A stretch of 64,000 nucleotides of DNA, from positions 611 to 64,610 of the forward strand of contig JAJFTD010000199.1 in assembly GCA_021373255.1 (NCBI GenBank), in the 5' to 3' direction. Source of the DNA: a bacterium. Lineage in GTDB: Bacteria; Armatimonadota; UBA5829. Positions 30,219 through 48,377 of this stretch are shown in pieces (the first letter of the stretch is position 1; each line of letters starts with the position of its first letter). Both the position numbers and the translations under genes were made by a program. The notes beneath the pieces were generated by a model. The model did no database searches, had not been told where the DNA came from, and saw only the letters and a program-made list of their open reading frames with translations.

Positions 30219-31394
30219 TCAGCGAGACTTACGAAGCCCGTCACCCTCCAGTGTATCATCATCTTCATCGCTGTCATCGTACCGCTTGCCCAGTATTGGA
30301 TCTTCGCGAGCCACAAGAGGATCGAGCCAGGCGATCTTTTCCCTAGCCCATGCTATGTAGTTCAGCAGCCTGTCCCGCTTTCCAGTATCAGTTTCATTCT
30401 GAGCCTGCTTTTCCAACTCTCCTACATACTGCTCAATTACACGTGCCTTTTGCCAATCGAGAGCGTTTTCTTCCAGAGACTGGAATCGCTCCATTTCTTC
30501 TCTCTGTCGCTCTTCTCGTTCCCGTCGTTCCTGCTCTCGCTGCCATCGGAGTTGTTCTTCGCGGCGACGCTCTTCACGTAATGTCCGCAGAGCATGCGCA
30601 CATTCCAGAAGACCAATCACAAAAGAACCCGCTTCGCTCTCTAACTGCTTTGTTTTTGCATCGCGCCAGTTCTTTCGAGGTGCGTGGTAGTCGTCAATCA
30701 TCAAAGCCAAGTCGTGCTCTTTGCTCCTCAGCCGGATTCGCATCGGCTCTCCCAGCCAGACAATCTGTGTGTGCCTTTCCTTCTCATCTAGCTTGACTGA
30801 ACCACCGAGTTCCTCAACCACATGGAATATGGCATTGAGCAGGCGGTAGGCGCGAGTCATATCATCAGGCTGCACATTAATGTCCAGTATTTTCTTATAC
30901 CAGGTGGACCAATAGTTGTGGTCTGAGTTGTAGTTGCTGTCCAAATAGTTGAAGGGTTTCCTTTCCCGTTCTTTGCGTTTGTGCTCTGCTCGGACTTCTT
31001 GATCCTGCTTGATCAACGGGTGCGGATTTGTAAGTCGGTCCTTCACCTGCAGATTGTCGCAAAGCTGCAGCACCTTAGTCCGCTCATCTTCCTCCAGGAA
31101 TACCAGCCGCTCCCCTGACTTGGCCGGAGTAGTTGGTCGGGGTCGATCCGATGATAGTGATATCCGGCGTATCCTCTTGGGGCCATCGTAAGGCGGTAGT
31201 GGCTCACGTGCAACACTTTGCCCGGCACTCAGCTTCGCCCAATATCCTCGCGGCGGCACAGGCACTTGAAGTCGCTTACATGCCTTGTGAATGGCAACAT
31301 CAGAGACACCATATCGTTTGGCGACCGTAGTAACCGGCTCCGACCAGACCTCCTCATACAGCTTGCCGCGCTCATAACTATTGTCAGTTATCAA
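30219..31394 (-). CDS. hypothetical protein with an N-terminal HTH-like region and a highly charged coiled coil
   Basis: The N-terminal region is 'VAKRYGVSDVAIHKACKRLQVPVPPRGYW'. The coiled-coil stretch is 'RREEQLRWQREQERREREERQREEMERF'. Confidence 0.45.
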   Translation of the reverse strand: MITDNSYERGKLYEEVWSEPVTTVAKRYGVSDVAIHKACKRLQVPVPPRGYWAKLSAGQSVAREPLPPYDGPKRIRRISLSSDRPRPTTPAKSGERLVFLEEDERTKVLQLCDNLQVKDRLTNPHPLIKQDQEVRAEHKRKERERKPFNYLDSNYNSDHNYWSTWYKKILDINVQPDDMTRAYRLLNAIFHVVEELGGSVKLDEKERHTQIVWLGEPMRIRLRSKEHDLALMIDDYHAPRKNWRDAKTKQLESEAGSFVIGLLECAHALRTLREERRREEQLRWQREQERREREERQREEMERFQSLEENALDWQKARVIEQYVGELEKQAQNETDTGKRDRLLNYIAWAREKIAWLDPLVAREDPILGKRYDDSDEDDDTLEGDGLRKSR

Positions 31395-31438
31395 TACCTT
31401 ACCTCATCAAATGGATCAACGACAGACACCAACGTACC

Positions 31439-32323
31439 TCAAACACAAGAGCCGCCTAGTTTCTCCACATCTCTAAGCTGTGCCAGCGCTCGGAACCACT
31501 GGAGCCTGGTTTTGCCATCAAGAAGAACGTCCGCATTAACCCGCCCGGAGGTGGACGGGACAACGAACACCTTGGACGACCCGATGCTTATCCCTGCCAA
31601 TCCATAATGATGATGTCCGGAACCAGCAATGGCAGTGTATGCGGTCTTGCCATTAAAGCAGACGATCTTGGGACTGAAGGCGATTATCTTCTTCTTGAGT
31701 GATGGCGCGCCACCCGATAGTTCTGATCTCGACAGATTGGAATCATCCCCTGCATGCCTATTCTTTACCATGTCGGTCAGACCGACGCCGTATTCGGGGA
31801 GCCTCCAATCATCTTCTAGTCCCAACGGCACTGGGACAATGCCAGCTTGAAATATGCATTTGTAGAATGCATTGTTGTATCCAGAATAGTAGTGTTTCCT
31901 GACCGCAGAGACATCGCTGGCAGCCGTGCCGACAAATACGATGTCGAGCCCGTCTCTAAGATAATCCGGCAACACATGTGGCTGATCGGTTTCCACCTGC
32001 TGGATAGGTATCTCAGGTTTTGCAGGCTCAGCCTGGGCAATGGGTTCGTGGCGGTCATGACCGCACGCTCTGATATACCACCTACCATTGGGTTCTTGAT
32101 GCTGGCCACGAACCTGGCCCTTACGTAACAGATTGCGCAACGGCAGACCGGGCCTACTCGCCGAATCTTTGAGCAGATCTGCCTGGTGCAACCACAGCGC
32201 TGCCTGTATAGCAGTGACTTTGTAGAGGCTCTCACGCTTCAGTCGGTCCTGAAGATATCGGTTGATGGTATTCATATCAGCCACGTAATCATTTCCTCCC
32301 CAAGTGAAAGACCACCGCCTCAT
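31439..32323 (-). CDS. uracil-DNA glycosylase superfamily-like protein with an N-terminal extension
   Basis: The segments 'IVFVGTAASD', 'KIVCFNGKTAY' and 'VFVVPSTSGRVN' resemble the UDG/Mug fold. The family was not resolved. Confidence 0.4.
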   Translation of the reverse strand: MRRWSFTWGGNDYVADMNTINRYLQDRLKRESLYKVTAIQAALWLHQADLLKDSASRPGLPLRNLLRKGQVRGQHQEPNGRWYIRACGHDRHEPIAQAEPAKPEIPIQQVETDQPHVLPDYLRDGLDIVFVGTAASDVSAVRKHYYSGYNNAFYKCIFQAGIVPVPLGLEDDWRLPEYGVGLTDMVKNRHAGDDSNLSRSELSGGAPSLKKKIIAFSPKIVCFNGKTAYTAIAGSGHHHYGLAGISIGSSKVFVVPSTSGRVNADVLLDGKTRLQWFRALAQLRDVEKLGGSCV

Positions 32324-33440
32324 TTAGCAACGTCCGCTTCCTTACCTTGAATCGTCGCTCGAACAGGTCATCAGACTCCCGTTCAATCTCCACCAACCCC
32401 AGGAACTCAGCAAACCCTTTGATACAGCGCGAGGAATAGCAATTGCGCACCGTTTGTTCCGGCGTGCTATACGATAATGAAGGCACCTCTTTCATCACGA
32501 CTGGAAATGCCCGCAGAAAGGTGTCTTCATAGAAACTGTTCGGTCGCCACTCATCACCATAGAGGTCGAGCAGGTAGAGTGTGAACAGGAACGAGTGTTG
32601 AATGAAATCGATCTCTGGATAGCCATCGCGGTAACCCCAATTGAACTGTTCGGCATAGGTACGCAGCAGTCGAGGATATATGCCGGCCAAGCCATGCTCG
32701 CTCAGCAGCTTGCGGCACTCGCGACCCAGGATGAACCTGCCCTTGTACTTGCGCACCAGCCCGTAAAGCTCGGCAACAATCCGGGTGGCGTGCATATCAT
32801 AGAAGTCAGGCTCGGTGTAGATATTGCTGATCTCGGTATGCTTCTTGTATCCCTCTTCGCCCCAGTATGCCAGCCCAGCCTCGCGCAAGAACCTCTGCGG
32901 CAGGTTGCCGGTTGCGGTTGGTTTGAGCCCCTGGTCGCCGATAGCCTTCGCGAGCAATTGGAACAGCATCACAATAGGCGCGGACGGCGGCACATCGAGA
33001 CAGGACGGGAATGTGACCAGTTCCGGGGAATCAAATGGATGATATAGGATCCCGCCCATCTGATCCGATGACAGCCCGTGGAACTCGTCCCTTGGCGCAC
33101 TATTACGCTGTCGCATAAAGCCGTCCAGAAAAACCTGGGCCTCTTCCCGTGAGGTGAACTCCTCGCCCTGCATTGCTTGGCGCACGTCCGCAAATAGCTC
33201 TTCATGCAGGCCCGACGTTGAAGATGCCTCTTCCCGCCCAAGGCAGCATTTCTTGTATTTCAGACCACTGCCACACGGGCAGGGATCATTTCTTCCCACG
33301 CTATACATAGTCTCGCACCCTGTATTCCATAATCCTCTGAACAGCAGCAATTCCTCAATTGTAGCATAGCCAGCGTCCTGAAGTATTAGATGATTCAAGG
33401 CAAGGTCGATGTGGATGCTGCGCCAGATATTGGGAAGCAA
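32289..33440 (-). CDS. SEC-C motif (zinc-binding) domain protein
   Basis: The SEC-C signature 'NDPCPCGSGLKYKKCC' lies near the N-terminus. The true start may be at 'MYSVGRND'. Confidence 0.5.
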   Translation of the reverse strand: MLPNIWRSIHIDLALNHLILQDAGYATIEELLLFRGLWNTGCETMYSVGRNDPCPCGSGLKYKKCCLGREEASSTSGLHEELFADVRQAMQGEEFTSREEAQVFLDGFMRQRNSAPRDEFHGLSSDQMGGILYHPFDSPELVTFPSCLDVPPSAPIVMLFQLLAKAIGDQGLKPTATGNLPQRFLREAGLAYWGEEGYKKHTEISNIYTEPDFYDMHATRIVAELYGLVRKYKGRFILGRECRKLLSEHGLAGIYPRLLRTYAEQFNWGYRDGYPEIDFIQHSFLFTLYLLDLYGDEWRPNSFYEDTFLRAFPVVMKEVPSLSYSTPEQTVRNCYSSRCIKGFAEFLGLVEIERESDDLFERRFKVRKRTLLNEAVVFHLGRK

Positions 33441-34411: not shown

Positions 34412-34933
34412 TCAAATCCAGCTCTCGATCACTACAGCCATCACCAACGCCAGAACAGCCAGAAGTAGAAGAGCAAGCGACCCAACGAACACACGATACT
34501 TCCGCACAGCAATCTGCGAGTTCTGGATGATCTGCTCAGCGTACAGATATTCCTCGTTCCGCCGTGAGGGTGGTTCCGAACCGCAAACACTGTGGAGAGC
34601 ATCCAAATATTTATTTGCGCGGCCGTATTTTGCTATATCCCCCCAGAAAAGCAGGTTATCACCCGTTCTGGGGGTCCCGTAGCCACGCAATAGGCCTATC
34701 CCGCATTTCGGCCACATGGACAGTAAGGCAAGGATAAGGCTAAGCGAGCTTAACGCGGCGGAACAGAGAAGGCAAACTTTGGACGTGTAAGCGAACTTGG
34801 TTGAGTCCTTCAGCAGGGACAAGACTGCGACTGCGGCAGCACCATTCAAAGCCACCAAGGCAGCGTTCTTTGCCTCTGCAAACTTGAGCCACTCATTAAT
34901 ATTGTTGAAGACGAATCTTAGTCTTTCTTCCAT
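34412..34933 (-). CDS. small integral membrane protein with about 3 TM helices
   Basis: Hydrophobic segments are 'AALVALNGAAAVAVLSLL', 'VCLLCSAALSSLSLILALL' and 'FVGSLALLLLAVLALVMAVVI'. Confidence 0.45.
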   Translation of the reverse strand: MEERLRFVFNNINEWLKFAEAKNAALVALNGAAAVAVLSLLKDSTKFAYTSKVCLLCSAALSSLSLILALLSMWPKCGIGLLRGYGTPRTGDNLLFWGDIAKYGRANKYLDALHSVCGSEPPSRRNEEYLYAEQIIQNSQIAVRKYRVFVGSLALLLLAVLALVMAVVIESWI

Positions 34934-35127: not shown

Positions 35128-35757
35128 CTAAACCTTGAAGGCTTTAGATCGGAGTACCTCAACGATCTCTGTTCTCGAAAGCAAGGCTAGCGTGTTGTCG
35201 ACAACCGGAACATCGTTCAGAACCCCGACAGCTAAAAGCTGATCCAAATCCTGATGCTCCAGAGAAATCAGGGCATACTCAACGTTAGCATCGGTGAGTT
35301 GTCGCGGTTTCTGGATTCTGTTGATGCAGAAGAATTCGATCCGGTACACGGTCCAGGCGCTTTGCGTCTTCGAGTACTTCAACCAATACTCCGGTTCAAT
35401 GATAGGCGCTGGCTCGATTTCTATTCCGCCGCAGGCATAGAGTGCATCAAACTCTGATGCGGCTTTGGTCAGTCTAGACTCCAGAGGGCACTTAACAACC
35501 TTGTCAAATTCGCTCAGGAGATCGCCGTAGCGCTCTGCTCGAAAGGCATAAATGTCGTTGGTAGTGGAAAAGAACGGCATCCATTCGTTCCACCGAGTCG
35601 GCTCATAGTTGATTACTACCAGTCCGCCTTGATGTGTCGTTTTGTGGTCAATGGCGTACAGCAAGTTCGTAGAGATGGCGTACCTGCTAGGCCTTGCGTC
35701 GACGGGGATGGGTTCATTACTGCCAGCCATTGCGTTCGTAATGCTGATATTGGTCAT
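35128..35757 (-). CDS. hypothetical cytosolic protein upstream of the membrane protein
   Basis: ORF only. It sits in the same orientation as 34412-34933, separated by a 194-nt gap. Confidence 0.4.
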   Translation of the reverse strand: MTNISITNAMAGSNEPIPVDARPSRYAISTNLLYAIDHKTTHQGGLVVINYEPTRWNEWMPFFSTTNDIYAFRAERYGDLLSEFDKVVKCPLESRLTKAASEFDALYACGGIEIEPAPIIEPEYWLKYSKTQSAWTVYRIEFFCINRIQKPRQLTDANVEYALISLEHQDLDQLLAVGVLNDVPVVDNTLALLSRTEIVEVLRSKAFKV

Positions 35758-35802: not shown

Positions 35803-37152
35803 CTATGGTTGATGCTCCAGTATGCGTAGCTGAATCAGAGACTCCTTCTCCTGTTGCTCATAGGTGTCTACGCAAGCAAACCTATGTTGATCGAATATCT
35901 CTTTATGCCGCTCATAAAAGTCAGGCAATACGGCAAAGTATATTAAGCTCGTTGGCTCTTGTCCTCGTTCTTCCACCCATCTCCGAAGCACACTTTGAAT
36001 CCGCGACAGTGTTATCAGGGCTTTGCCCGTATGGCCACCGGTTTCGCTGTGAAGCCCGCCAGTTTTGCCATATGTGTAATCATCGAGCATTAAAGCACAT
36101 CTTGAACTGAACGAGGCCTCGCTCGCAGTTATTGCATTGTTTACCTTAGCCATAACTGTGATAACAAGTCTCAGCGTTCGGTCGAGTTGGTTAGCAACCT
36201 TTTCCTCTGGCTTGAGGTAGCCGACCTGCTGCCTGAGGGGGGAGGTGGCCAAGAATCCGTCACCTTCAATGACACGCTGGTAATAGCCAAACTTATCCAA
36301 GCTCTGTCTAAAAACGGACGACAGTACCAGCAACAACTCGTGCGCTATCTCCTGACCGCTTTCTGTAAGGGACCTGAATTCATCGTGAACCCTGTAATAG
36401 AACTTCCCGAACGAGACCAGGTCGAAAGATAAGATCAGGCCGTATTCGCTGTACACTAACTCCTGTTCAGATATGTCAATAGGATGACTGCATAATAGCT
36501 GTATCTCATTGGCGAAGAAAGGGTAAGCAACGTTTGTCGATAGGGGCTTGCCTCTAAAAAACATCTTCTCAGGATCATCGCCCGGAATCTCCAGAACCTC
36601 GTTCAAATCCTCGATGCATAGGAACTCAAAGCCCCTAATACACTCCGGATCCGCGACATTCAACTTGCCCAAAGTCTCCAATTCCGTTACGAGGCTCCGC
36701 TTTACGAAGTAACACTTCCACTTGTCTGGCTCCCTCGTGGATCGCTTGAACTCCAGTATGTCATCCATAGGGATTAGACGCCCAGGAGACACTCCCATAT
36801 GGTAGAAGTTGTACGCTATCCTTTCTGCTATCGACGCGGAATGTCGTTCAGTCTCTTCGCGGAAGAACTGCCGGATATGCCCGACTTGATGGTACTTGTT
36901 CGGCCCGCTCTCTACCTTATAGGCTATGTAGGGTGTGGACCAGATACACTCTCTGACGCCCCCGTTCTGGGGCAATCGCCTGGAGTAGCTTGGATACTGC
37001 AAGACAAGATAGTGTTGGCCCCCGTTCCTCAGCACATATATGAAGAGATGGAGAAACCAGAATTCGGACGGTGAGGGGTCTAGTTCATAGGTATCTGGCA
37101 CCATCGTCAAGTCACGCCAGTCATTCGAGTACATATCTCGAGCAGTATTCAT
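35803..37152 (-). CDS. hypothetical protein of 449 aa
   Basis: A long ORF. Its start overlaps the stop of the upstream radical SAM gene by 4 nt. Confidence 0.45.
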   Translation of the reverse strand: MNTARDMYSNDWRDLTMVPDTYELDPSPSEFWFLHLFIYVLRNGGQHYLVLQYPSYSRRLPQNGGVRECIWSTPYIAYKVESGPNKYHQVGHIRQFFREETERHSASIAERIAYNFYHMGVSPGRLIPMDDILEFKRSTREPDKWKCYFVKRSLVTELETLGKLNVADPECIRGFEFLCIEDLNEVLEIPGDDPEKMFFRGKPLSTNVAYPFFANEIQLLCSHPIDISEQELVYSEYGLILSFDLVSFGKFYYRVHDEFRSLTESGQEIAHELLLVLSSVFRQSLDKFGYYQRVIEGDGFLATSPLRQQVGYLKPEEKVANQLDRTLRLVITVMAKVNNAITASEASFSSRCALMLDDYTYGKTGGLHSETGGHTGKALITLSRIQSVLRRWVEERGQEPTSLIYFAVLPDFYERHKEIFDQHRFACVDTYEQQEKESLIQLRILEHQP

Positions 37153-38702
37153 TGAGCACCTACCCTATTATCTAGCCGCCGAGTCATATCCAAGAAGAGC
37201 TTGCGCAGGCGTTTGCCTAGATCTCGAGAGTCCTTCTCCGCTTCACTGCAGCACGCACGCAGCAATTCATAGTCGTGCCTTCTTAAGATGGCTAGTTCAA
37301 GCTTTAAGCCATCGATTCTCTGACTGTCATTAAGATCGCTCCGAATCCTGCTCTGCAGGTCGTATGCCATAGAAATAGAACGTTCTTCCCACCGCGAGTA
37401 GGTATCATATATCAACGCGATATCCTCTGATTGGAAGACAACTTCTACCTCTACACTATCCATGTTCACCCCACTAGTGATCCAGTCTCCATCTTCGTAA
37501 TACTTGAACAAGGACGTGTTAGGTACCGTCCGTAACCGCTTACCAAATCGTGAGTAGTGGCTCAGGAGGCCACTGCGTTCCAGGAAGTCCAGGTTGTCGC
37601 GCAGGTCATGGAGAGTCATCTCAGGATCAAACATAATGAAGCCGGCATCGACATCAAGATCACAACGGGACAGCAGATCTAGTGCCCACATGTTATCATC
37701 GACCGTGACTCCCTTGTTATACCGCGCCAACTGATTGGGATTCCCCGACTCCACACCAAGGAAAAAGCCCAAGAAACCGGCGGTCCTCATAGTCGTCAAT
37801 AGCTCAGTGTTCTCCAACTCGTCATAGCTACCGATAACCGACCGAGTACTCGTGCTAGCATAGAACTTCAAACTAGCATCTATCACTTTATTCCTTTTCA
37901 ACTCTAGGATTTCATTGCACAGGTAGAACATTCGCTGCCTATCAGGCCCGATGAAGTCCTCGTCCGTGAAATAAACTATCCCAGTGCCTGCTTGCGAAAC
38001 TTCAATGATCTCCGAGAGAACTTTCTGCACAGGAAATGGTCTCCAGAGACTCTGGCCGTATTTCCACGGAATTATGCAGAAACTGCATTGGCTCCAGGGG
38101 CAACCTCGGCTTCCTTCAATTCGGATCACCCCATGATTATCTAGTATGCTTTTCACATATGGGCGAAAGGGCTTAACGTAGAAATTCCGGCAGTCTATTG
38201 CGCTTCTGATCGTACACACTACAGTACCCTGACAGTTAATAGCCAGATTAGGGACAGCCCCCTCGACCAATCGTTCTCTAAAAACGTCCGATGCAGTCGG
38301 ACCAAGCGCAAGTGATTGCTCTACTATTGCAGTAATGGCCTCTTCGCCTTCTCCAATCACACAGATCACATCTTCATATCTGGATAGCACATCCGAATAA
38401 GCCATGGTAGGTAAGCTATCACCCAGTATCACAACTGGTACCGGATCCATTTTTAGTATCTCATCTTGCACAAACCGAAGGGTTTCAAACGAACCGATCT
38501 TGCAAGAAATGCCGACAATATCTGGGCGAAAGCTGCCTAGCAGGACTCCAACAGTAGGATGAGCCAACTTGAGGTAGGCTAGTTCTATACGCACGTCCTC
38601 CTCGAAACGCGCTAACAGCGCACCGGCAAGTGCCTCTATACCTAGCGGTTCGTTTAGCTCTTCCCGTGGATAGCCTATATCAATTAACAGAATCTTTAAC
38701 AT
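37149..38702 (-). CDS. B12-binding domain radical SAM protein
   Basis: The N-terminus 'MLKILLIDIGYP...' looks like a B12-binding fold. The Cys cluster is 'GSRGCPWSQCSFC'. The ORF call extends to 38780, but the likely start is at 38702, where 'AAGTGG' precedes the ATG. Confidence 0.65.
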   Translation of the reverse strand: MLKILLIDIGYPREELNEPLGIEALAGALLARFEEDVRIELAYLKLAHPTVGVLLGSFRPDIVGISCKIGSFETLRFVQDEILKMDPVPVVILGDSLPTMAYSDVLSRYEDVICVIGEGEEAITAIVEQSLALGPTASDVFRERLVEGAVPNLAINCQGTVVCTIRSAIDCRNFYVKPFRPYVKSILDNHGVIRIEGSRGCPWSQCSFCIIPWKYGQSLWRPFPVQKVLSEIIEVSQAGTGIVYFTDEDFIGPDRQRMFYLCNEILELKRNKVIDASLKFYASTSTRSVIGSYDELENTELLTTMRTAGFLGFFLGVESGNPNQLARYNKGVTVDDNMWALDLLSRCDLDVDAGFIMFDPEMTLHDLRDNLDFLERSGLLSHYSRFGKRLRTVPNTSLFKYYEDGDWITSGVNMDSVEVEVVFQSEDIALIYDTYSRWEERSISMAYDLQSRIRSDLNDSQRIDGLKLELAILRRHDYELLRACCSEAEKDSRDLGKRLRKLFLDMTRRLDNRVGAQ

Positions 38703-39393
38703 TAAGTGGCCTTTGCTCAGATGCAATGTTGTCGTTTCTTTTGCATTGCTTAAGCGACAGCATTCTAGATAGAATCTCATTGTCGGTTAGTGTGGAACTG
38801 GCACCTGCCAGCCATACGTTAGGACCATTGAAAACCTTAGTATAACCAGTGAGTCCTTCGGGATTGAAACAGATAAAATTCTCGGATGCCGGCTTCTGAA
38901 CAGACTGGCGCTCCACAAATCCCCACTGGTTCACAACTCCCGGTAACGGCACTGTCACACCATCGACAGCCACTGCGATAATGCCCTCGCATTCTCGTCT
39001 ACGGACCGAGAAAACCCGGTGCGTTCCATCACACAGGACAAGTTGCGATTGCCTGCGTTCGATTATGGGAGGAGATACTAGCTGCACGAGATCCTGCTCA
39101 TAGCGGACCAGTATAGGCTCAAACAAACCTATACAGTGAGCACCGTACAGGTCAATAAGCCTTTCAGCAGTCTCTATTCGCCTTTCGTAGACATATCTGG
39201 TTAGGGGAACGATGTTGGCGACACGAATGCGTTCCAGTGTGTAAGTTGCATTAGAATGGCAGGTAAGCCTGCGCAGCAGAAAATCCAGAAAGCAGGTTCT
39301 ATCTACGGGCTTGACGGACTGTATTTGCAGTTGACGCGAATAGTACGGATTAGCCATGGTGCGCCTGACCTCGAGTAATGAAGAAAGGCTCAT
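38680..39393 (-). CDS. ParB/Srx-fold (DGxHR-type) domain protein
   Basis: The segment 'QLVLCDGTHRVFSV' resembles the ParB/sulfiredoxin/DndB 'DGxHR' box. Confidence 0.4.
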   Translation of the reverse strand: MSLSSLLEVRRTMANPYYSRQLQIQSVKPVDRTCFLDFLLRRLTCHSNATYTLERIRVANIVPLTRYVYERRIETAERLIDLYGAHCIGLFEPILVRYEQDLVQLVSPPIIERRQSQLVLCDGTHRVFSVRRRECEGIIAVAVDGVTVPLPGVVNQWGFVERQSVQKPASENFICFNPEGLTGYTKVFNGPNVWLAGASSTLTDNEILSRMLSLKQCKRNDNIASEQRPLNVKDSVN

Positions 39394-39552
39394 CTCGCAA
39401 CATCACCAGGAGTGCCAATGTTGGTGCCCAACGTGGAGTCCGGCAGGGGATGTTCTGGGCATCAGTTGGGCCGCCATAGATGTCTATCCGAGCTGCGTCG
39501 AACTTGCCCATTGATACTACGCAGTGGAAAAAGCTTATGCTCATCCCCGATG

Positions 39553-40791
39553 TCAGCACTCCTCTCGTGCTTCAGTGTTATGTATAATCTCGCAGTAACT
39601 GGAGATTACAGAGTCCCTGTGAAAAACTCTCCTGGCGTGTGCACTAGCATTCTTGCTCATTCGCCTTCTAAGCCTTTCCGAGTTCACTAGAGTCAGTACG
39701 CAGTTGACCGCAGATTCGAAGTCGAAAGAACACCGATTCTTGCCGTCTGAACTGCGAACACAGGAGAACAGCAATCCACACTCGGAGGCGAGAATCTCCT
39801 GGCCGATTCCCACTACATCCGTCGATACGCAAGGCACCCCGCAGGCCATAGCCTCAGCAAGGCTCAGGTTGAATGAGTCGTGAAAGCTGCAATTGAGCTC
39901 GACATCAGCCGCACGCAGCACTTCTTCGACCCTATCAACGACTCCTGTCTGGATCAGACGGAAGTTGCGGCTCCGCTTTCGGGTAGGGAATGCAATCTTC
40001 GGTCCAACCATAGCCAGCGTGATCTGCCTGTCCGTGCGTTCAGCTACTGCGGCGGCGATATCAATCACAGCCTCTGGCATTTTCACAGGTCTCATATTGG
40101 AGTGGGACGATATAAGTAATTCACTCTCGCGCACCTGCAAAACCTTTCTAGCTTGAGCACGTTCTGCGGCCGAGGCTGCATGGAATCTTGAGAAATCGAG
40201 GATAGGGTAGGCAGTAACGAACGGACGGTTCAGTTCGTACATTGTAGTGATCTCGTCCGCAAACTGCCTGGTGTAGGTGATCAGAACAGATACTTCTGAA
40301 CTGCCGAGGATTCCTTTTGTCGTGTTCCGAACCTGCGGTCCAATCTCCCACATATCAGATCCGGCAGGAGTGAGCCAAAGGTCAGCAGGAAGACCCATTT
40401 CGGTTAGGGTGCGCTTACTGAGCCAGGCGGCATGTCCGTACGGAAACATGTATACGCCCCATAGTATAAGCCTGGAACCTGTACTGTGTAGCTTGATGGC
40501 AAGGTCAGTCATTTGCTCAGCTATGGTAAATACGGCAAGGACATCGCTGCTTTTGATTGGTTTTAGATCGCCTATTGCACCTGAACTAATGTCTTTGACT
40601 GTGTGAAAAGCAATCTGATCCGCATCATTAGTTCGGAAACGGAAGGGTCTTTCAAACCCAATGTAGTGGACGCATAGGCCTTCCCTTGAGAGTTCGTATA
40701 TGATGCCACTCATTATTTGTTGGGCACCCGAGAACCCGTGCGGACCAGTTACGATCAAAGCTACATCGTCAGTCGTTGTCGTCATCGTCAT
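39553..40791 (-). CDS. GT4-family (GT-B) glycosyltransferase
   Basis: The C-terminal motif is 'FHDSFNLSLAEAMACGVPCVSTDVVGI'. Length is 412 aa. Confidence 0.75.
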   Translation of the reverse strand: MTMTTTTDDVALIVTGPHGFSGAQQIMSGIIYELSREGLCVHYIGFERPFRFRTNDADQIAFHTVKDISSGAIGDLKPIKSSDVLAVFTIAEQMTDLAIKLHSTGSRLILWGVYMFPYGHAAWLSKRTLTEMGLPADLWLTPAGSDMWEIGPQVRNTTKGILGSSEVSVLITYTRQFADEITTMYELNRPFVTAYPILDFSRFHAASAAERAQARKVLQVRESELLISSHSNMRPVKMPEAVIDIAAAVAERTDRQITLAMVGPKIAFPTRKRSRNFRLIQTGVVDRVEEVLRAADVELNCSFHDSFNLSLAEAMACGVPCVSTDVVGIGQEILASECGLLFSCVRSSDGKNRCSFDFESAVNCVLTLVNSERLRRRMSKNASAHARRVFHRDSVISSYCEIIHNTEAREEC

Positions 40792-41623
40792 GTCTGGTCC
40801 TCATTGGCACTAGAATAGTATGGAGCGAATGTGCGATGCTCTGAGCTGTCCAGTGCTCTTTTTCAAAGTCTATCCCAGCAGCACTTGCATATATCTCGGT
40901 ATCTTGTAAGAATCGATCTATGCAAAAAAGAAGCGAATCAATTATGGAATCAGCATCGTAACGTGGCAACGTGTCGCCCAACGAACCTGCAAGTTCCGTC
41001 CCAAGATCAGTCTCAAACTTCTTTGATGGCAGCCGAAAATCCAATCCCGGCGGGGGTGAGTGCCGCAGAAGCCGGTTGGCAATCAGCAATTGGTCTCTAA
41101 CGTCCGATAGGTGACGTATGGCCAACCAAAGATGACCACGCTGAATATCCTTACACGTTGCCAGAGATCGTAACCAGAAGTAAGTATACGCCGACATGAA
41201 CACCTCGTGGTTGTCGACAGACAAGTCCTGGTTGGCCATGAGGAACGATGTATAGAACCCAGTGTGATCCCAAAGCACGTGGTCGTCTACTTGCATTGGA
41301 GTGGGAATGAGCGTGTCCCTAGTATTGATATTGAGTTGGCACACAAACGATGGAGAGAACAGAACAGTGAAGGAATACCCGTAACCATCAACTAAGACAG
41401 GTCCTCGGAACATGAGTATTTCGCCCAATTGCGACATGATGTCCCGTACGCCAAGCCGAAGAAATGCGTGGAGATCGCAACTGCTGGCGAGAGCGAAAAG
41501 GTCAAGGTCTGAATACCGATCCATCTGCCCCCTGCTAGCAGACCCACCTATAGCAAGCGCCTCCAGGTGCACTGCGCTTTCGTGATGTTGCAGATCTATA
41601 CATCTACTGATAAACTTATCCAT
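40769..41623 (-). CDS. pol-beta superfamily nucleotidyltransferase (KNTase/Lnu/ANT-like)
   Basis: The NTase signature is 'IGGSASRGQMDRYSDLDLFAL'. The gene overlaps the GT gene by 23 nt. Confidence 0.55.
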   Translation of the reverse strand: MDKFISRCIDLQHHESAVHLEALAIGGSASRGQMDRYSDLDLFALASSCDLHAFLRLGVRDIMSQLGEILMFRGPVLVDGYGYSFTVLFSPSFVCQLNINTRDTLIPTPMQVDDHVLWDHTGFYTSFLMANQDLSVDNHEVFMSAYTYFWLRSLATCKDIQRGHLWLAIRHLSDVRDQLLIANRLLRHSPPPGLDFRLPSKKFETDLGTELAGSLGDTLPRYDADSIIDSLLFCIDRFLQDTEIYASAAGIDFEKEHWTAQSIAHSLHTILVPMRTRHDDDDND

Positions 41624-42407
41624 ATCTCAATAACCTTGTCACTGCATCCTGCACAGTGCCTCGTGAGCCAGGCTCAGTTAAACAATACAGCGGATTAATG
41701 TTGATGGAGCATAGCGTGCATTCTGAGAACTTGGCGGATTCTGCCGGCTCAGAATCACTCTCTGCCACCTTGCTTACACCAACATTTCGAGCGCAACGAA
41801 CTTATCAAGACAAGGGCCTTGCATCAAGTTTTTATGGTCTAGGACACAGACGTCTAGCATCGACATTCTCGACAGAAATGCACCCATTCATTGGCAACTT
41901 CCGACTTGTCTGTCCAGCAACGTCAAATGCGATGCACGTATGGAACAAACCTAACTAAAGTCGATGATTCTGATGCCTCTATTGTGTCACCATTGTGACG
42001 TCAGTCGCACGCAGCTTAACAATATGCATGTTCGTCACATGGTGGAAAATGTCCTTCCGAATCATATAAAACTCATTACTGTTGAGTTCTAATGTTGAAA
42101 CGCCACTTTGGTGGTTCACAGGCCGATTCTAGTGGCAGTATGGTAGCCCTGACTCATATCCTGTCCAAACGTACTTCAGCGGTAGATGCTACTCCGCTGC
42201 TGACTACCCTAAAGAGTAATACGAGGAGTGCCTCACAGGTACGACGCAGCATATGACCTACCTCTGTGATTTATGAAAACTCAGAGCTAGCTTGAGAGGG
42301 TCCCGGAAACGGAGAAGTCGGCGGTAGTTAACGAACAACTATTGGGTATTGGTCATTGGAGGTCGGCCTAGGATGACCAATGCCGGCAGGAGAGGAGTGA
42401 AACTCAG

Positions 42408-42930
42408 ATGTCGACCACCAGCAGGGAGCTTAGCCAATCGTTCAGGGCAGACCTCATGAACGGCTTGCTAACGCCCGTCCTGCACCTGGTAAGGGCTGAC
42501 CATACACTTAGCCTTAACATCCGGAATGAGTATATGAACATCTGTTACAGGGGGGGTAACCTGGCTAAGATCAGCAGAGAGAATGGTGGTGGCTATACGT
42601 TCGAGTTCGACCAAATTACGGGAATGTGAGCCGCAAAGGACTTGGTGCATTGCCGCTCCTGAATATAGATGATCTCCCTCGCCATGTGCGACCCGATGGC
42701 AACAGCGACATCGATCAATGGATTGCTTCCGTGCCGTTGCTGAAGTGTACGATGAATCTATGGCTGCGACAGCAGAAGAACAACTTGGAGAGGAATTCCA
42801 GCAACTCGTGGAGCGCGCAAACAACGAGAACTCGGTCAGTGTATCCAATTGCAATATACCCCTGAGCCTTATTCGCCTTATCCAGCGGCGCGGCGGTTGT
42901 CTGGCACCATTACACAGGCTCTCAAGGTGA
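42408..42930 (+). pseudogene. possible frameshifted gene remnant (three short ORFs in different frames)
   Basis: The ORFs 42408-42629, 42626-42865 and 42718-42930 tile the region in shifting frames. No motif was recognised. Confidence 0.2.
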
Positions 42931-45900
42931 TCAAAATCCGAACTCGCTCAACGGCTCGCGCATTCGAGACTTGAGAGATGACAGAGTCTCGAATGTGTCC
43001 GCTACGGGCAAGTGTTCGCCAAGCATACTGTAGAGCCTGTGGCACTCGACTCTTGTCATTCCTCCTACTGCAGCATAGAGCGCGAGCTTCTCTGGCAAAT
43101 CAAAGCCTTCCTTGATACAAGCAGCAAGCACCCCTAGTGTTAACGGCATCTGCTCATCAGTTGAATTGCTCTCTATACATCGGCGGTGGAGCAACGTGAC
43201 CAGACCAACTGCATAGCTGAGTTCGGGAACAACCCGGAGGGCAAACTTACGACCGCGCTCAGCATAACGAGTTTTCGAGTTCAACCCCGTCTCAAGTTGC
43301 TTGATCGTAGCGCCGGAAATCCAAGATCGAGCAACCGAAAACAAAGCCTGGACCAGAGCAGCTTTCTCATCTACTGTGGCTTTCTCTGGTTCTTTAGAGT
43401 TCTTGAGCTTAACGAGCTTGCTAAATGCACCTGAAATAGTTTGGGGCCTAAGTATTCCGAACAGCCAATCCGGGTGCTTCTGAAGCCACTCACAAAACCA
43501 TATTAGCCAATCAGACACAGTCCACATCGGTAACGTTCCGATCTCACGCAACGCACAATGCAGACTCGAGACGATTGCAGGGTCAACTCCACTGTCGTTT
43601 GCTGCCCGCGCGAGCCACAGTGGAACGCTCATATCTGTCTCAACACGGCTTTTGAACTGTGAGAACCGCTGAATCCTCTCCTTAAACTCCGCAGATTGCC
43701 CCCGAATATCTGCATAATAAGCAGATAGGCTCCGATTAAGGAACGAGATGTCAACAATACCAGCATCGTCAACCGGCACGCGGTTTACAAAATACGTAAG
43801 GTCTGGATCATAGTTGCCACCGGCATTCTGTATCTTGTCCAAACACAGGTTTATGGGATCCTCTATTTCAACGCACTGATCACTTTGCGAAAAGACCTGT
43901 CGTTGCAAGTCAAACCATCGAGGATGAATAGCATTCTTCCCTTCGTCAAAGTCCACCACAGAACCGGGAATGATCACCACCATTCCTTGAGGGCAATACC
44001 CAGCTCTGCCGGCGCGACCAGCAGCATTTAGCAACTCGTGTGCCTCAAGAGATCGGGCATGCCCTGAATTTATATCGAACCGGTCATCCCCTGCGATAAT
44101 GACAGCTTCCGCTGGCAAGTTCATTCCTTGTGCTAGGGTGTTCGTAGCCGCGATAAGCTGTATGCCATCGCGTCTGCGAAATGCCTCTTCATTAAGCAAC
44201 CTTTCAGAGGGAAGCATCAAGGCGTGGTGACATCCTGCTAACCCGTCAAACGGACTGTAGACGCAAGCTGCATCGCCCATCTCAACTGCCGCGTTTTCGA
44301 TGAGTTCGAGTTCCCGAGAGGAAGGCACAGCCGACTGTATACTATCCTTTAGCTCCCTGGATGCCTCGCGGGCAAGTGACACAGTGTGAGTAGTGTTCTG
44401 TAGAAAGACCAGAGTCTTCATTCCAGCTTTTGCCATGCGAACGCCAATTGAGCGTGCCACCTCCACACGATTGGGAGTCAACGACCACCAAGCATTTGCC
44501 GACAATGGAACAGCGTCACCAAAGCCTAATAGAGCATAGTCCTTACGATCTGTGGTATTCCAAGTCTGATGTAAGCAAAAGAAACCATGTGGTTCTGCGC
44601 TCAGCTGTCTCACCACGTCCTTGCTGGGTGGCTTTGGTTTCTCACCTCGAGCACGAGCAACACGAAGTATCTGGGCTCTCCCTGCTCCGTTGAGCTGCTT
44701 GTATAGATCACCTATCTGATTAGATGGGTAGACAACACAACCACGTGCCTGACGTGTTGGCTTCCACGGCAGATGGATTGACAAACACATCTTGCCACAG
44801 CGTCCGCTGAGCCATTCAGCTAGCTTGTCTGGGTTCTGCATCATTGCAGATAACAGCAAGACATCTGCGCCCGGAGCAGCAGCCATTACGTGTAATAGAC
44901 ACATCGTAGCATCAATGCTACGTCTTGCCGAATTCGCGTCGTTTTCTGAGTAATGAATCAAGTGGCATTCATCGAAGACTACCAATCCACACGATGTGTA
45001 GGACTCCGGTGCAAAGCGAACTTCTGTCAGACATCGCTCAGGAGTCATTACGGCTACTACTGGGCTTTCAAATGACGGTCTTTCATCAGTTTCGGAATAT
45101 TCCCCGCCTCCTGAAAGATAAGTCAGCACTCGATGCGCAGGGAAAGCTTTTCGTAAGTCACTGATAACCTGACTTACCAGAGCGTGGGTCGGCACAAGGA
45201 ACACTACGCTCTGGCCACGGAGTAGTGCCGTAGCGATTTTCAGTTCTGCAAGAGCTGATTTTCCCGCGCCGGTTGGAAAGCTTACCGCGGCCGAGTGACC
45301 CGGAATCAAGTACCCTTTTCGGATCGCCTCCCAGTGATTTTCCCAAAGATAAGGTCTTCTGGTTGCCAGCCCCCTTACGTAGTGTCTCCATTCTTCTTGG
45401 TCAATCCCCATGGGTGCGCTCAAGGCTATGGCGGACACTTGCATCAAGCGATCTGTAGCTATTGAGAGCAGGGATGCTAGATGATGAGGGCCTCCGAACA
45501 ACTCACAGGCTGAATCAAGATATTCGAGGGGTGCGCCAATCTTTTCTCTGAACTCCGGTGGTGGTTGAAACTGCACAACTGCATCTTTGCGCACGTTGCT
45601 GAACAATCCGTATGGATCAACAGATGGCTTGTCACCAAGTAGCATTTGTGATACTGCCCGAACTCCAGCGTAAAGCCGATTCCACAACACTCGACAGGCA
45701 ATTACGTAGAGATCGTCGGACTCCGGATATGAGCTAGTAACATCCGGCGATAATCTGGCAATTCCGGCCAAGTCACCCTTGGCAAGCCCGGATATCGCAT
45801 TTATGAGTGCAGATTCTATGGTGGATTCAGTTTCAGCATTGACCTTATTGGCGACTGCACTTGCATCGGATGGGTAGCCAGCGATTATAAACAGCAGGAT

Positions 45901-46380
45901 TGCAGATAAGTCAGAGGAAATTGCGTCAGCACGCAGGTAACTAGTGAGGTTCTCATCTCGCCGAATCGACTCGGCAAGGTGAAGCAAATGGCGGGCAGAT
46001 GCGGCTACAAACGCGGCACTTCTTGTCTGGGGATTGTCGGGCTGTACTACAACCAAAGACTCATACGTGTTCGCCAATCGCTTGAGTTTGTCTAGGACCA
46101 TGCTTAACTCGTCTTCTGACGGAGCCGCGTCGTTGGCAAGGGATAGTCGCAAGGATACTATAGTCGCATAGGCCTCTGTCATTTCCTCAGGCAAGCTATC
46201 CAGATCCAATTGGTCCAGAGAAGGGGCTTGCGTAATTAGCAGTCGCGTCGTCGCATCAAACATCGGCTGCCTCGAGAAGTGTTTTGATCTCATCAGAGAC
46301 AGACTTGCAGAAGTTGTCCATCCAAGTGCGCATATCTGAAAAAGCGACTGTTTCAGCTCTGCGGCGCGAGATATTGCCAC
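42931..46380 (-). CDS. SF2 DEAD/DEAH-like helicase of 1149 aa, Hachiman HamB-like
   Basis: Helicase motifs are 'FPTGAGKSALAE', 'VVFDECHLI', 'LLSAMMQ' and 'LNAAGRAGRAG'. It has a large C-terminal extension. Its start overlaps the upstream HamA-like gene. Confidence 0.6.
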   Translation of the reverse strand: MAISRAAELKQSLFQICALGWTTSASLSLMRSKHFSRQPMFDATTRLLITQAPSLDQLDLDSLPEEMTEAYATIVSLRLSLANDAAPSEDELSMVLDKLKRLANTYESLVVVQPDNPQTRSAAFVAASARHLLHLAESIRRDENLTSYLRADAISSDLSAILLFIIAGYPSDASAVANKVNAETESTIESALINAISGLAKGDLAGIARLSPDVTSSYPESDDLYVIACRVLWNRLYAGVRAVSQMLLGDKPSVDPYGLFSNVRKDAVVQFQPPPEFREKIGAPLEYLDSACELFGGPHHLASLLSIATDRLMQVSAIALSAPMGIDQEEWRHYVRGLATRRPYLWENHWEAIRKGYLIPGHSAAVSFPTGAGKSALAELKIATALLRGQSVVFLVPTHALVSQVISDLRKAFPAHRVLTYLSGGGEYSETDERPSFESPVVAVMTPERCLTEVRFAPESYTSCGLVVFDECHLIHYSENDANSARRSIDATMCLLHVMAAAPGADVLLLSAMMQNPDKLAEWLSGRCGKMCLSIHLPWKPTRQARGCVVYPSNQIGDLYKQLNGAGRAQILRVARARGEKPKPPSKDVVRQLSAEPHGFFCLHQTWNTTDRKDYALLGFGDAVPLSANAWWSLTPNRVEVARSIGVRMAKAGMKTLVFLQNTTHTVSLAREASRELKDSIQSAVPSSRELELIENAAVEMGDAACVYSPFDGLAGCHHALMLPSERLLNEEAFRRRDGIQLIAATNTLAQGMNLPAEAVIIAGDDRFDINSGHARSLEAHELLNAAGRAGRAGYCPQGMVVIIPGSVVDFDEGKNAIHPRWFDLQRQVFSQSDQCVEIEDPINLCLDKIQNAGGNYDPDLTYFVNRVPVDDAGIVDISFLNRSLSAYYADIRGQSAEFKERIQRFSQFKSRVETDMSVPLWLARAANDSGVDPAIVSSLHCALREIGTLPMWTVSDWLIWFCEWLQKHPDWLFGILRPQTISGAFSKLVKLKNSKEPEKATVDEKAALVQALFSVARSWISGATIKQLETGLNSKTRYAERGRKFALRVVPELSYAVGLVTLLHRRCIESNSTDEQMPLTLGVLAACIKEGFDLPEKLALYAAVGGMTRVECHRLYSMLGEHLPVADTFETLSSLKSRMREPLSEFGF

Positions 46381-47053
46381 TCACAACCATATCGTACCCT
46401 TTGAACAGAAGTGCGTGGGAGACTGCCGGCTTAACTGTAACGCAAACCCGATACTGCTGATGTTTGTTCCAAAACACATCAGCCACTATATCTTCAGCCT
46501 GCTCTACTCCTTTGGCTGCCAGTATAGTAGACACTTCAGCCATCAGTTCATTGTCGCGTTCACCACGTTCATAGGCTGCAAACTCTGGCCAAACCTTATC
46601 TCTAACCTCATCCCGACTATTGTCAGTGGCCTTATCTTCGCAAATAGTAATCCCCCTCAGTCCACTAACACTATCGTTGAGGTGGACAATGAGCCCATCC
46701 TGTCCCTTCTCCGCTGGTTGCATTTGTGGTCTGCGCAGTATGACTAGGGAATCAGTTGACTGCTTAGCAGCAAGCCAGGAGATCAACTGGAACACCCAAC
46801 CATCGCGATGCCAACGTAGACCATCAGAGGCAGGAGGAGAAAGGTGCTTTAGGGCCGCCTGCGCTGCGTTCACGACCATTTTGGGAGACTTGTGTTGCTC
46901 TCCCTCAAGTATCTTCGCTATGTGGATGTGATAGCCTAGAGCAAGCCACGCAACGTACTGAGCAAGAAGCTCGGCGTCATGGATGGTCCACGTGGCACCA
47001 TGACACAGATTCTCGATGGTATAAGGCTGCAACTGAATAGGCATCGTCGTCAT
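46256..47053 (-). CDS. DUF1837-like PD-(D/E)xK protein, Hachiman HamA-like
   Basis: The D-x(n)-E-D-K arrangement is seen in 'GLIVHLND...ITICEDKATD'. The likely start is 'MTTMPIQ', with an RBS 'AAGGA' 4 nt upstream. The ORF call extends to 47212. Confidence 0.5.
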   Translation of the reverse strand: MTTMPIQLQPYTIENLCHGATWTIHDAELLAQYVAWLALGYHIHIAKILEGEQHKSPKMVVNAAQAALKHLSPPASDGLRWHRDGWVFQLISWLAAKQSTDSLVILRRPQMQPAEKGQDGLIVHLNDSVSGLRGITICEDKATDNSRDEVRDKVWPEFAAYERGERDNELMAEVSTILAAKGVEQAEDIVADVFWNKHQQYRVCVTVKPAVSHALLFKGYDMVVSGNISRRRAETVAFSDMRTWMDNFCKSVSDEIKTLLEAADV

Positions 47054-47181
47054 CCTTACGCAGACACATCCATTGAATACCGAGCCAGCATTCACCAGAC
47101 TGATCGCTGCGACAGCGCCGTTACTAATCGTAACACTTATATCATTCGCTACCAGGCAGACATTTACCTGCCAAACTCGGG

Positions 47182-47229
47182 CGTGTCGCCTCCACACTAG
47201 CGCTGAGTGCAAGGTGTGGAGGCGACACG
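47182..47229. other. 16-bp perfect-stem hairpin with a 16-nt loop, between the DUF4238 and HamA-like genes
   Basis: The stem is CGTGTCGCCTCCACAC...GTGTGGAGGCGACACG. It lies about 130 nt upstream of the HamA-like start, on the minus strand. Confidence 0.4.
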
Positions 47230-47438: not shown

Positions 47439-48377
47439 TTATTCTCTGATCGAATCGGCGGCCGTGATCATTTCCTGGCATACGATGTCTGGATGCCGTG
47501 ACGAGATCATATAGCGATCTGCATTCTGCCACAGCAGAATATTGAAGAATCTCTCATTGTTGGCGGCCAATGGGTAATACTGACATGACGGTTCGTTGCG
47601 CATATCATCCATTGTGAGCAGTCGAGTTGGACTCAACGTAAAAAGAACAACTGTGTGTTTTGTCTTCAGTCCAAATGTGCCTTTAGCCAGGTCACTATTC
47701 GTATAGGTTACCGGATTGTCAGTTGTAATAAATACCGGCTCATCAGCAACGATGACCGACCACCGCTTTTCAAGCAGCACAGTCGCGATTTCTCCGACTG
47801 AGTACTTTATGTGGTCCACAAATATCCTCTGGAGTTCGTTGCCAGAAGCAGACTTGTATGTATTATATGAGGTTGCACCGAACGACATTGCCCGTCCTCG
47901 AAACACAATCTCGCCTATCCTCGGGTTTTCTAGACTATCTTTGGGAAGCGTTTCATAAAAAGAGACCAACTCATCATGTATCTTTTTCGTTTGCTCAAGC
48001 ATTGCGGGAGTTCGCACAAGCATGATGGATGTCAGGAGTGCGATGCCCTTTCTAAGTGATGGGGAACTCAAATCGACAAATCCAGTGGCCAACTGCGGCC
48101 ATATTCGTGAGAGCAATGCCTCAGCTTGTGCGAATCGGCTCTCCATTTCGAATGAATGCTTCCCATCGATATCTGCTGGTGAGTAGAGATGGTTTTGAGC
48201 GCATATATCATTGACTCCTGCAAGAACAGGATCACCATCATGTCGGTGAAAGATCCACACTCGAGGCTTTGGCGTGTTTACTGTCTCAGGTGTGGCAAAG
48301 TACTTGAGATAAAACCTTGGAACCCAATGCTGCTTGACTGGATCGTTCATCTTCTCAGTGCATTCCTCTCTTCTCAT
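47439..48377 (-). CDS. DUF4238 family protein
   Basis: The N-terminus 'QHWVPRFYLKYF' is a hallmark I recall for DUF4238. Confidence 0.5.
   Translation of the reverse strand: MRREECTEKMNDPVKQHWVPRFYLKYFATPETVNTPKPRVWIFHRHDGDPVLAGVNDICAQNHLYSPADIDGKHSFEMESRFAQAEALLSRIWPQLATGFVDLSSPSLRKGIALLTSIMLVRTPAMLEQTKKIHDELVSFYETLPKDSLENPRIGEIVFRGRAMSFGATSYNTYKSASGNELQRIFVDHIKYSVGEIATVLLEKRWSVIVADEPVFITTDNPVTYTNSDLAKGTFGLKTKHTVVLFTLSPTRLLTMDDMRNEPSCQYYPLAANNERFFNILLWQNADRYMISSRHPDIVCQEMITAADSIRE

Follow-up and report, generated by a model that had tools for sequence, protein, structure and literature searches.

The 64,000-nucleotide (nt) stretch of contig JAJFTD010000199.1 (Armatimonadota, UBA5829) analysed here, referred to as the window, very probably carries a conserved Pycsar-related defence cassette in which a cryptic sensor-cyclase is encoded close to a PycTM-family membrane effector. 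The conserved unit consists of six genes, which encode a ParB-like protein, a nucleotidyltransferase (NTase), a B12 radical S-adenosylmethionine (radical SAM) enzyme, a protein of 449 amino acids (A), a protein of 209 amino acids (F) and the PycTM effector (G); in the window there are seven, the additional one encoding a family 4 glycosyltransferase (GT4). We rate the cassette as a variant of Pycsar-type signalling. The original prediction had proposed a unit of five genes at positions 35803–41623: its five minus-strand open reading frames (ORFs) are real and are present at the positions it gave, but its boundaries were wrong, as F and PycTM were omitted and the GT4 gene is not conserved. It had also placed the genes inside a defence island and considered an anti-phage role with nucleotide or nucleic-acid chemistry. 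The first point agrees with the neighbours found on the island (two AbiE pairs, a HamB-like helicase, and ZacA and ZacC of Azaca), and the second, taken as nucleotide chemistry, is the best reading in view of the cyclase fold of the 449-amino-acid protein, the likeness of the radical SAM enzyme to OxsB and the presence of PycTM.

For the comparison across genomes, lineages were defined by the identity of protein A, and 28 related loci were annotated with hidden Markov models (HMMs). The order ParB-like protein, ANT-like NTase, B12 radical SAM enzyme, A, F is conserved in 15 independent lineages, which fall into three deep clades with 26–45% identity of A between clades. Conservation of the order across this many lineages, at such protein identity, is more than chance. 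The sizes are ~180–237 amino acids for the ParB-like protein, ~250 for the NTase, ~500 for the radical SAM enzyme, ~440 for A and ~209 for F, and the ORFs mostly overlap. F stands directly after A in all related loci which hold both, except for L005, where the gap is 489 nt. The PycTM gene is found either directly after F or directly before the ParB-like gene, and it adjoins the cassette in 14 of the 14 lineages whose flanks lie on the contig. In four lineages of one clade (L002, L011, L018 and L019) the NTase and the radical SAM enzyme are fused into one protein of 756–764 amino acids, with the NTase at the N-terminus. The order in the window differs (NTase, GT4, ParB-like protein), the NTase gene being shifted ahead of the ParB-like gene. 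Two further layouts were seen on short contigs: in L016 (1–3645) A and F are followed by convergent ParB-like and NTase genes, and in L028 (2–1803) the NTase, ParB-like and F genes are contiguous, with no radical SAM or A gene between them.

Homologues of A are rare. The carriers are Armatimonadota, Blautia, Ruminococcus, other Clostridia and metagenomes, and one of them, Blautia sp. Marseille-P3201, is a cultured isolate; its locus lies on NZ_LT635470.1 at ~1,129–1,137 kb (L007, 6581–11898). The distribution is patchy across phyla and associated with mobile elements: the flanks of the cassette contain integrases, recombinases, insertion sequence (IS) elements, transposases, toxin–antitoxin pairs, KwaA, OLD-type ATPases and conjugation genes. 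The block, which the original prediction recommended looking for in other genomes next to defence genes, does recur there, without the GT4 gene. Searches of viral contigs for A, F and the TIR fusions described below gave no relatives, and neither did a search of plasmids for A.

All seven genes of the window lie on the minus strand. From the ORF list, the NTase (284 amino acids) is encoded at 40769–41623, GT4 (412 amino acids) at 39553–40791, the ParB-like protein (237 amino acids) at 38680–39393, the radical SAM enzyme (maximal ORF of 543 amino acids) at 37149–38780 and A at 35803–37152; F (35128–35757) and G (173 amino acids, 34412–34933) lie outside the range first proposed. The overlapping ends of the original description are seen for the A and radical SAM ORFs (4 nt), the radical SAM and ParB-like ORFs, and the GT4 and NTase ORFs (23 nt), while the ParB-like gene is separated from GT4 by 159 nt rather than 160. 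Because codons 1–26 of the radical SAM ORF are not conserved among homologues, its true start is probably M27 at 38702 (517 amino acids; 37149–38702), and its overlap with the ParB-like gene would then be 23 nt, not 101 nt. The GT4 and NTase genes are probably co-translated in the window, because of their overlap. Promoter and terminator scans gave no signal above shuffled controls, and no Rfam family and no tRNA was found within the window. The five genes are indeed richer in AT than the window as a whole (GC content 49.4% vs 53.4%), but the entire island at 24–49 kb has a GC content of 50.9%; low GC is thus a trait of the island and not specific to the five genes, and AT-richness was dropped as a property of the block.

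Looking at the proteins separately, A was resolved by a fold search alone; by sequence it matched nothing in the Protein Data Bank (PDB). Its AlphaFold (AF2) model, made from 11 sequences, has a predicted local distance difference test (pLDDT) score of 83. In a Foldseek search against PDB, residues ~230–449 gave Cya2 (2w01; E 1.4e-8, TMt 0.70) as the best domain-level match, and further matches were CyaC, Rv1900c, CyaB and mammalian adenylyl cyclases. At E ≤ 0.001 there were 148 matches, of which the best 50 are all class III cyclases. The structure prediction recommended for this protein in the original prediction thus points to a class III cyclase fold, and the C-terminal half of A is modelled as such a nucleotide-cyclase fold, missed by sequence models. 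On the model, A is predicted to be a sensor-cyclase: a Nudix-like sensor domain (residues 1–225, 36478–37152) which would bind a nucleotide ligand, fused to a strongly diverged cyclase homology domain of the class III nucleotidyl cyclases (residues 226–449 and the stop codon, 35803–36477), both on the minus strand.

The family profile of A found 187 proteins among 1.84 billion representatives and pulled in no ordinary cyclases; against PDB its best match was to the cyclase domain of Rv1900c, at E 1.1 only, with the GDGF motifs aligned. Similarly, hhalign of the C-terminal domain against canonical cyclases encoded nearby was weak (probability 9%), with the catalytic motifs aligned. Among 90 family representatives the conservation is 90% for D244, 88–92% for G297-D298-G299 (89% for D298 itself), 89% for R351, 99% for K/R363 and 88% for R384. 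When aligned to a canonical cyclase, D244 and D298 fall in its FxDxxxF and GDG motifs, and by this alignment they are assigned as the two metal-binding aspartates and R384 as the transition-state arginine. In 11 of the 14 PycTM-linked lineages, the window included, there is no other cyclase and no PycC, which leaves A as the sole candidate for synthesis of the signal there.

Protein F is, by sequence comparison, a stand-alone paralogue of the N-terminal domain of A. With a 98-sequence profile, hhalign of the N-terminal domain against the F family gives a probability of 97% (E 1e-10, 183 columns); the initial comparison was weak (22%) and became convincing only with that profile. The AF2 models of the two have the same order of secondary-structure elements, they share a Trp, K-x-S, W-x-x-Y and P-x3-N, and one protein of 635 amino acids (P0071) is an A–F fusion. 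Searched as a single sequence against a word index, F retrieved nothing but itself; with an alignment as the query, the F family amounts to 56 clusters at 90% identity. The AF2 model of F has a pLDDT of 95.3, and its top Foldseek matches are for the most part Nudix proteins, with weak scores (best E 0.015 in PDB and 1e-3 in BFVD; TMt up to ~0.5). The Nudix box (GX5EX7REUXEEXGU) was not found in the alignments of F or of the N-terminal domain of A; the conserved positions there are largely Trp, Tyr, Lys, Ser and Asn. From the models we infer that both are non-catalytic, Nudix-like ligand-binding domains, a putative assignment.

Concerning the effector, G matches the Pfam family PycTM (E 1.2e-10, 42.2 bits vs a cutoff of 27.2 bits). 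In PADLOC it matches the CBASS-type effector with two transmembrane segments (2TM; E 8.7e-37) and PycTM (E 5.1e-26). Its hydrophobic segments are at residues 23–42, 50–82 and 143–173. Scoring with PADLOC, as originally recommended, therefore picks up the PycTM/2TM effector beside the five genes, but none of its models (PADLOC v2) covers A, F, the NTase or the ParB-like protein.

The radical SAM enzyme had been called a cobalamin-type enzyme in the original prediction, and this stands: Radical_SAM is matched in Pfam (E 2.6e-11, 44.4 bits), and B12-binding is marginal, at 31.4 bits slightly below the cutoff of 32.1 bits. The best PDB match is OxsB (5ul2; E 1e-29, 106.7 bits, residues 32–380 vs 148–499), the alignment covering the cobalamin-binding and radical SAM domains; the next best, AprD4 (E 2.2e-10), is ~20 orders of magnitude behind. 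The cluster-binding motif SRGCPW(x2)CSFC has the spacing CX4CX2C, and CPW(x2)CSFC is present in 10 of the 11 family members; the corresponding motif of OxsB is CDYSRCTFC. This atypical spacing, which OxsB shares, sets OxsB apart from TsrM and TokK (PMC9204698). From these sequence features the enzyme is assigned as cobalamin-dependent (class B) and OxsB-like, OxsB being by far its closest solved relative and one whose substrates are nucleotides. OxsB removes a hydrogen atom from C2' of dAMP, dADP or dATP, and the sugar ring is contracted on the route to the antiviral nucleoside oxetanocin A; it has the HD phosphohydrolase OxsA as its partner and can also methylate dAMP (PMC9204698). Because of this chemistry at C2', we propose by analogy that the cassette enzyme probably remodels or methylates a nucleotide sugar.

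There are also differences from OxsB. The cassette enzyme lacks the N-terminal domain I of OxsB, a position occupied in one clade by the NTase; R323 of OxsB, which follows the Cys motif, is not conserved in the family. The oxetanocin pathway has OxsA as a partner, whereas the cassette does not, no HD domain being found by Pfam in the seven window proteins. Finally, OxsB belongs to natural-product biosynthesis and the cassette enzyme to a defence context.

The NTase is assigned from its sequence to the ANT/KNTase type, as the original prediction had it. The Pfam matches are below threshold (Adenyl_transf at E 4.9e-4 and 19.8 bits vs a cutoff of 22 bits; NTP_transf_2 at E 0.029), but the best solved relative of the family profile is ANT(6)-Ib (8vxb; E 8e-4, 178 residues), and A24, G26-G27-S28, R31, S38-D39 and D41 are invariant (GGS...DxD), in agreement with the Pol-β NTase motif hG[GS]x9-13DxD. 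Homologues of the NTase are found in every related locus, and outside the window the gene follows the ParB-like gene, which is the first of the cassette at most loci. In the ParB-like family nine of ten members match Pfam Parb-CE (best E 3.3e-6), and the residues P108-P109, E112, D122-G123, H125-R126, P149, G152 and W157 are invariant, with the motif DG[T/M]HR. The DGxHR-type ParB/sulfiredoxin-like call is nevertheless weak: the match of the window protein itself is sub-threshold, and the family profile found no sequence relative in PDB. The suggested DndB-like role in DNA modification was dropped, as no feature supports it.

The domain call for GT4 was correct (Pfam Glyco_trans_1_4 at 56.8 bits and Glycos_transf_1 at 50.6 bits); the best NCBIfam match, BshA at 109 bits, is far under the cutoff of 273.7 bits. 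As a defining part of the unit GT4 fails: its HMM has zero matches in the 28 related loci, and in the plasmid collection its only relative is a distant Bacillus match. It is a lineage-specific extra outside the conserved cassette, which may decorate the ligand in the window organism.

The Nudix-like domain is also found in other architectures. Among the matches of the A family, ~25 proteins hold this domain only, without a cyclase; it is fused to TIR in five clusters, and in other clusters to unidentified N-terminal domains. In the TIR protein it forms the C-terminal half. Three sister loci (L033, at 1215–4014, L034 and L035) have the order of a 235-amino-acid protein with a weak cofC/MobA-like match, a 274-amino-acid radical SAM enzyme and an overlapping gene for the TIR–Nudix-like protein. 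In a fourth (L029, at 3–1998) the same pVip-like radical SAM gene lies directly upstream of the TIR–Nudix-like gene, and the contig is cut there. This radical SAM enzyme is of the viperin family (NCBIfam NF038283, E 1.1e-39, full length, below the cutoff; PADLOC pVip, E 7e-42), and PADLOC has no model for the TIR–Nudix-like protein or the 235-amino-acid protein. Two unrelated radical SAM types, OxsB-like and viperin-like, are thus each followed by the same Nudix-like domain, which in both cases is joined to a domain for the output. The strongest hint that this domain reads a nucleotide made by the radical SAM enzyme is that both types precede it and that both have relatives which remodel nucleotide sugars.

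Two other N-terminal domains were also observed. The first is helical, of ~200 amino acids, and precedes the Nudix-like domain in fusion proteins that may or may not contain the cyclase domain (P0102, P0111, P0113, P0183, P0193, P0162, P0198 and P0199); it has no Pfam match, and its consensus is xWKSxxxFxVFFxAxxKDNT...QYDAVNILL. A second, uncharacterised N-terminal domain is present in P0094, P0100 and P0127.

Putting the proteins together, we propose a signalling relay which leads from a radical SAM-made ligand through the Nudix-like domains and the cyclase to PycTM. As a whole it is put forward tentatively, and we think it slightly more apt to fail at some step than to hold throughout. The NTase, the radical SAM enzyme and the ParB-like protein would act jointly on a nucleotide to give a small nucleotide-derived ligand, which A and F would bind through their non-catalytic Nudix-like domains. 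Class III cyclases need dimerisation, and binding of the ligand could bring the cyclase domains of A into their active dimer, possibly through release of F, which may be a competing or inhibitory partner of A. A would then make a cyclic nucleotide which activates PycTM, the membrane would be damaged and the cell would die before the phage matures (abortive infection). A broader idea, which we hold to be possible but rather doubtful, is that nucleotide-remodelling radical SAM enzymes, both OxsB-like and viperin-like, yield a new class of second messengers, read by a hitherto unrecognised, non-catalytic Nudix-like receptor domain and coupled to interchangeable outputs, either a cyclase with PycTM or TIR.

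Several points weigh against the relay. Protein A and its homologue have no match among the Pfam, NCBIfam or PADLOC sequence models, including PycC and Guanylate_cyc, and at position 380, where the canonical cyclase has the ribose-binding, transition-state Asn four residues before R384, A has mostly Ile or Val, an equivalence taken from the motif alignment and not from superposition. The Nudix-fold assignment comes from Foldseek matches of low score (E 1e-3 to 0.1), the match of the window ParB-like protein to Parb-CE (E 6e-4, 20.2 bits vs a cutoff of 23 bits) is below threshold, and likeness to OxsB leaves the substrate of the radical SAM enzyme unfixed. In L001 (8445–9914) the radical SAM enzyme is without ~36 residues, including the entire CX4CX2C motif, in an otherwise intact cassette; the cause is either decay of this copy or a fault in the assembly. 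The best PADLOC match of G being the CBASS-type 2TM family, the messenger need not be a cyclic nucleoside monophosphate (cNMP). PycC-type cyclase genes lie beside PycTM in four lineages (with strong PADLOC evidence in L006 and L013, weak evidence in L002 and a local cyclase HMM only in L008), and in those PycC alone could serve PycTM, with the cassette as a separate neighbour. Lastly, the TIR–Nudix-like contexts come from two protein clusters only and from short contigs.

The last-named lineages lead to the alternative that two systems are simply neighbours: the ParB-like protein, NTase and radical SAM enzyme, with or without A and F, would be an independent module for modifying nucleic acids or metabolites near Pycsar genes, and A a dead or non-cyclase palm protein. 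We consider this improbable. ParB-fold proteins often bind DNA, PycTM may stand on either side of the cassette, and the PycC beside it is bona fide in L006 and L013, though weaker in L002 and detected by the local HMM only in L008. Yet the adjacency of PycTM holds in all 14 assessable lineages and across the three deep clades, 11 of them being without PycC, and the loci with PycC are derived subclades; moreover, ORF overlaps run through the cassette and the catalytic residues of A are strongly conserved. The original prediction had offered as its own alternative a small glycoconjugate, aminoglycoside-like or antibiotic-modification pathway, to which we give hardly any credence. The window does encode enzyme types known from aminoglycoside pathways, namely a BshA/MshA-like GT4, an ANT-like NTase and a B12 radical SAM enzyme with a weak match to AprD4. 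This pathway was dropped, as GT4 is absent from all 28 of the related loci tested; a membrane-disrupting effector and a cyclase fold are always in the cassette, no transporter, aminotransferase or sugar-nucleotide genes are present, and the surroundings are those of defence, toxin–antitoxin, integrase and transposase genes in a distribution patchy across phyla. The finding that was to count against an anti-phage role, a core-genome lipid or cell-wall pathway, was likewise not made.

The other two explanations keep the cassette as one system. One of them, which is unlikely but of some weight, is that the radical SAM enzyme acts with the NTase and the ParB-like protein to produce a chain terminator, a nucleotide analogue (e.g. 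of the oxetane or ddh type) which poisons phage polymerases directly. The Nudix-like domains would guard this analogue, firing the cyclase and PycTM (or TIR) on its destruction by a phage or on its accumulation, as a second, abortive layer of defence. It fits with oxetanocin A, the product of OxsB, being an antiviral nucleoside (PMC9204698). It fits also with the sister loci, in which the Nudix-like domain is joined to pVip-family enzymes, whose products are chain terminators, and with the Nudix hydrolases which phages often encode and which dominate the BFVD matches. The cassette, however, has no OxsA-type HD phosphohydrolase or nucleotide kinase and no evident gene for resistance or self-protection, the ParB-like protein is left unexplained, and the data do not separate activation by presence of the ligand from activation by its absence. 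Quite unlikely, in our view, is a tailoring of the messenger itself: the three enzymes would supply a modified nucleoside triphosphate (NTP) for A or modify its cyclic product, PycTM would answer a non-standard messenger resistant to phage phosphodiesterases or sponges, and the Nudix-like domains would be phage sensors. The NTase–radical SAM fusions imply successive steps on one nucleotide, and OxsB acts on nucleotides and can methylate dAMP (PMC9204698); A, in addition, is without the canonical ribose-contacting Asn, which would suit an altered sugar. On the other side, a related PycTM beside an ordinary PycC (L002, L006, L008 and L013) argues for an ordinary cNMP ligand, and the TIR–Nudix-like sister has no cyclase, so that the product of its radical SAM enzyme cannot be a cyclase substrate.

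Compared with known systems, the cassette is nearest to Pycsar (PycC with PycTM or PycTIR; cCMP or cUMP as the messenger). Common to both is a class III cyclase fold beside a three-transmembrane effector of the PycTM family in a defence island. PycC relies on two catalytic aspartates, and the two metal-binding aspartates assigned in A are likewise conserved; also, the cassette abuts PycC-type genes in four lineages, with a strong PADLOC match to PycC in two of them. In contrast to PycC, A is invisible to the PycC and Guanylate_cyc models and carries the N-terminal Nudix-like domain, and whereas Pycsar comprises two genes, the cassette has four more (those of the ParB-like protein, NTase, B12 radical SAM enzyme and F), which are equally conserved. 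The prokaryotic viperins (pVips), which produce ddhNTPs, are radical SAM enzymes of phage defence whose targets are nucleotide sugars, as is presumed for the cassette enzyme, and pVip-like genes lie directly upstream of the TIR fusions. The cassette enzyme, however, is a B12-dependent class B enzyme by its sequence, unrelated to viperin beyond the superfamily, and pVips are described as single enzymes which act directly and not as parts of a receptor–effector cassette. A possible rationale for the NTase–radical SAM fusions is offered, by analogy, by Fom1 and Fom3 of fosfomycin biosynthesis, where a nucleotidyltransferase adds a nucleotide handle and a B12 radical SAM enzyme then modifies the substrate; the context and the other genes are unrelated.

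The system of the report 'Base-modified nucleotides mediate immune signaling in bacteria' is reportedly named Kongming. A conceptual precedent is an enzymatically modified, non-cyclic nucleotide which serves as an immune signal (bioRxiv 10.1101/2024.12.20.629578). In that system the modification is to the nucleobase, and the likeness to the cassette is one of concept; relative to it, sugar-directed modification by a radical SAM enzyme and a Nudix-like receptor would be new. Searches of literature full text, in libraries which are incomplete, gave no paper in which PycTM or Pycsar is linked to radical SAM enzymes or to ParB, and none that links OxsB to phage; for viperin, TIR or Nudix with radical SAM they gave unrelated systems only (Ophion, a Pycsar–Thoeris operon and Pucsar). 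The six-gene cassette is apparently undescribed so far, which agrees with the remark of the original prediction that its gene combination is not a textbook pathway.

The remaining genes of the island and its surroundings lie on the minus strand as well. Two AbiE-type toxin–antitoxin/abortive-infection pairs are found at 26216–29840 (AbiEii at 26216–27184 and 28069–29094, AbiEi at 29037–29840), together with an ORF of 206 amino acids at 27136–27756. Directly downstream of PycTM are three co-oriented genes (30219–33440) for proteins of 391 amino acids with no match, 294 amino acids of the UDG superfamily and 383 amino acids with a SEC-C motif. Between the NTase and the helicase, a stretch of 1.3 kb (41624–42930) contains only short overlapping ORFs on both strands (those on the plus strand, e.g. 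42408–42629 and 42626–42865, being in different frames); it could be what is left of a gene, or else a regulatory region. The HamB-like DEAD-box helicase (1149 amino acids; PADLOC HamB, E 7e-37) and an upstream partner of 318 amino acids occupy 42931–47212; the partner has no Pfam or PADLOC match (no HamA/DUF1837), and the two may be a variant Hachiman-like pair. A DUF4238 protein (47439–48377, E 9e-30) lies at the edge of the low-GC island, whose right boundary is near 49 kb, where the GC content jumps from ~0.48 to 0.59. Azaca is found at 57483–63835 (ZacC with E 0 and 1141 bits, ZacA with E 4e-132), its middle gene encoding 613 amino acids with a weak PLD-like match.

Whatever the mechanism, the unit is now corrected, the 449-amino-acid protein is predicted to be a sensor-cyclase and a membrane effector is added to the system. 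The family of A would represent cyclases missed by sequence searches, and beyond natural-product clusters OxsB would have its only close relatives in the radical SAM enzymes of the cassette. If the relay is true, B12-dependent radical SAM nucleotide chemistry and a new receptor domain enter bacterial immune signalling, and Pycsar cyclic-nucleotide signalling would be joined with viperin-type nucleotide modification and oxetanocin-type nucleoside chemistry. If nucleotide-remodelling radical SAM enzymes do yield a new class of messengers, the window cassette would be a two-tier nucleotide signalling cascade, and some products of the viperin family would be signals and not only chain terminators. 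In Blautia sp. Marseille-P3201 there is a cultured host in which the idea can be tested.

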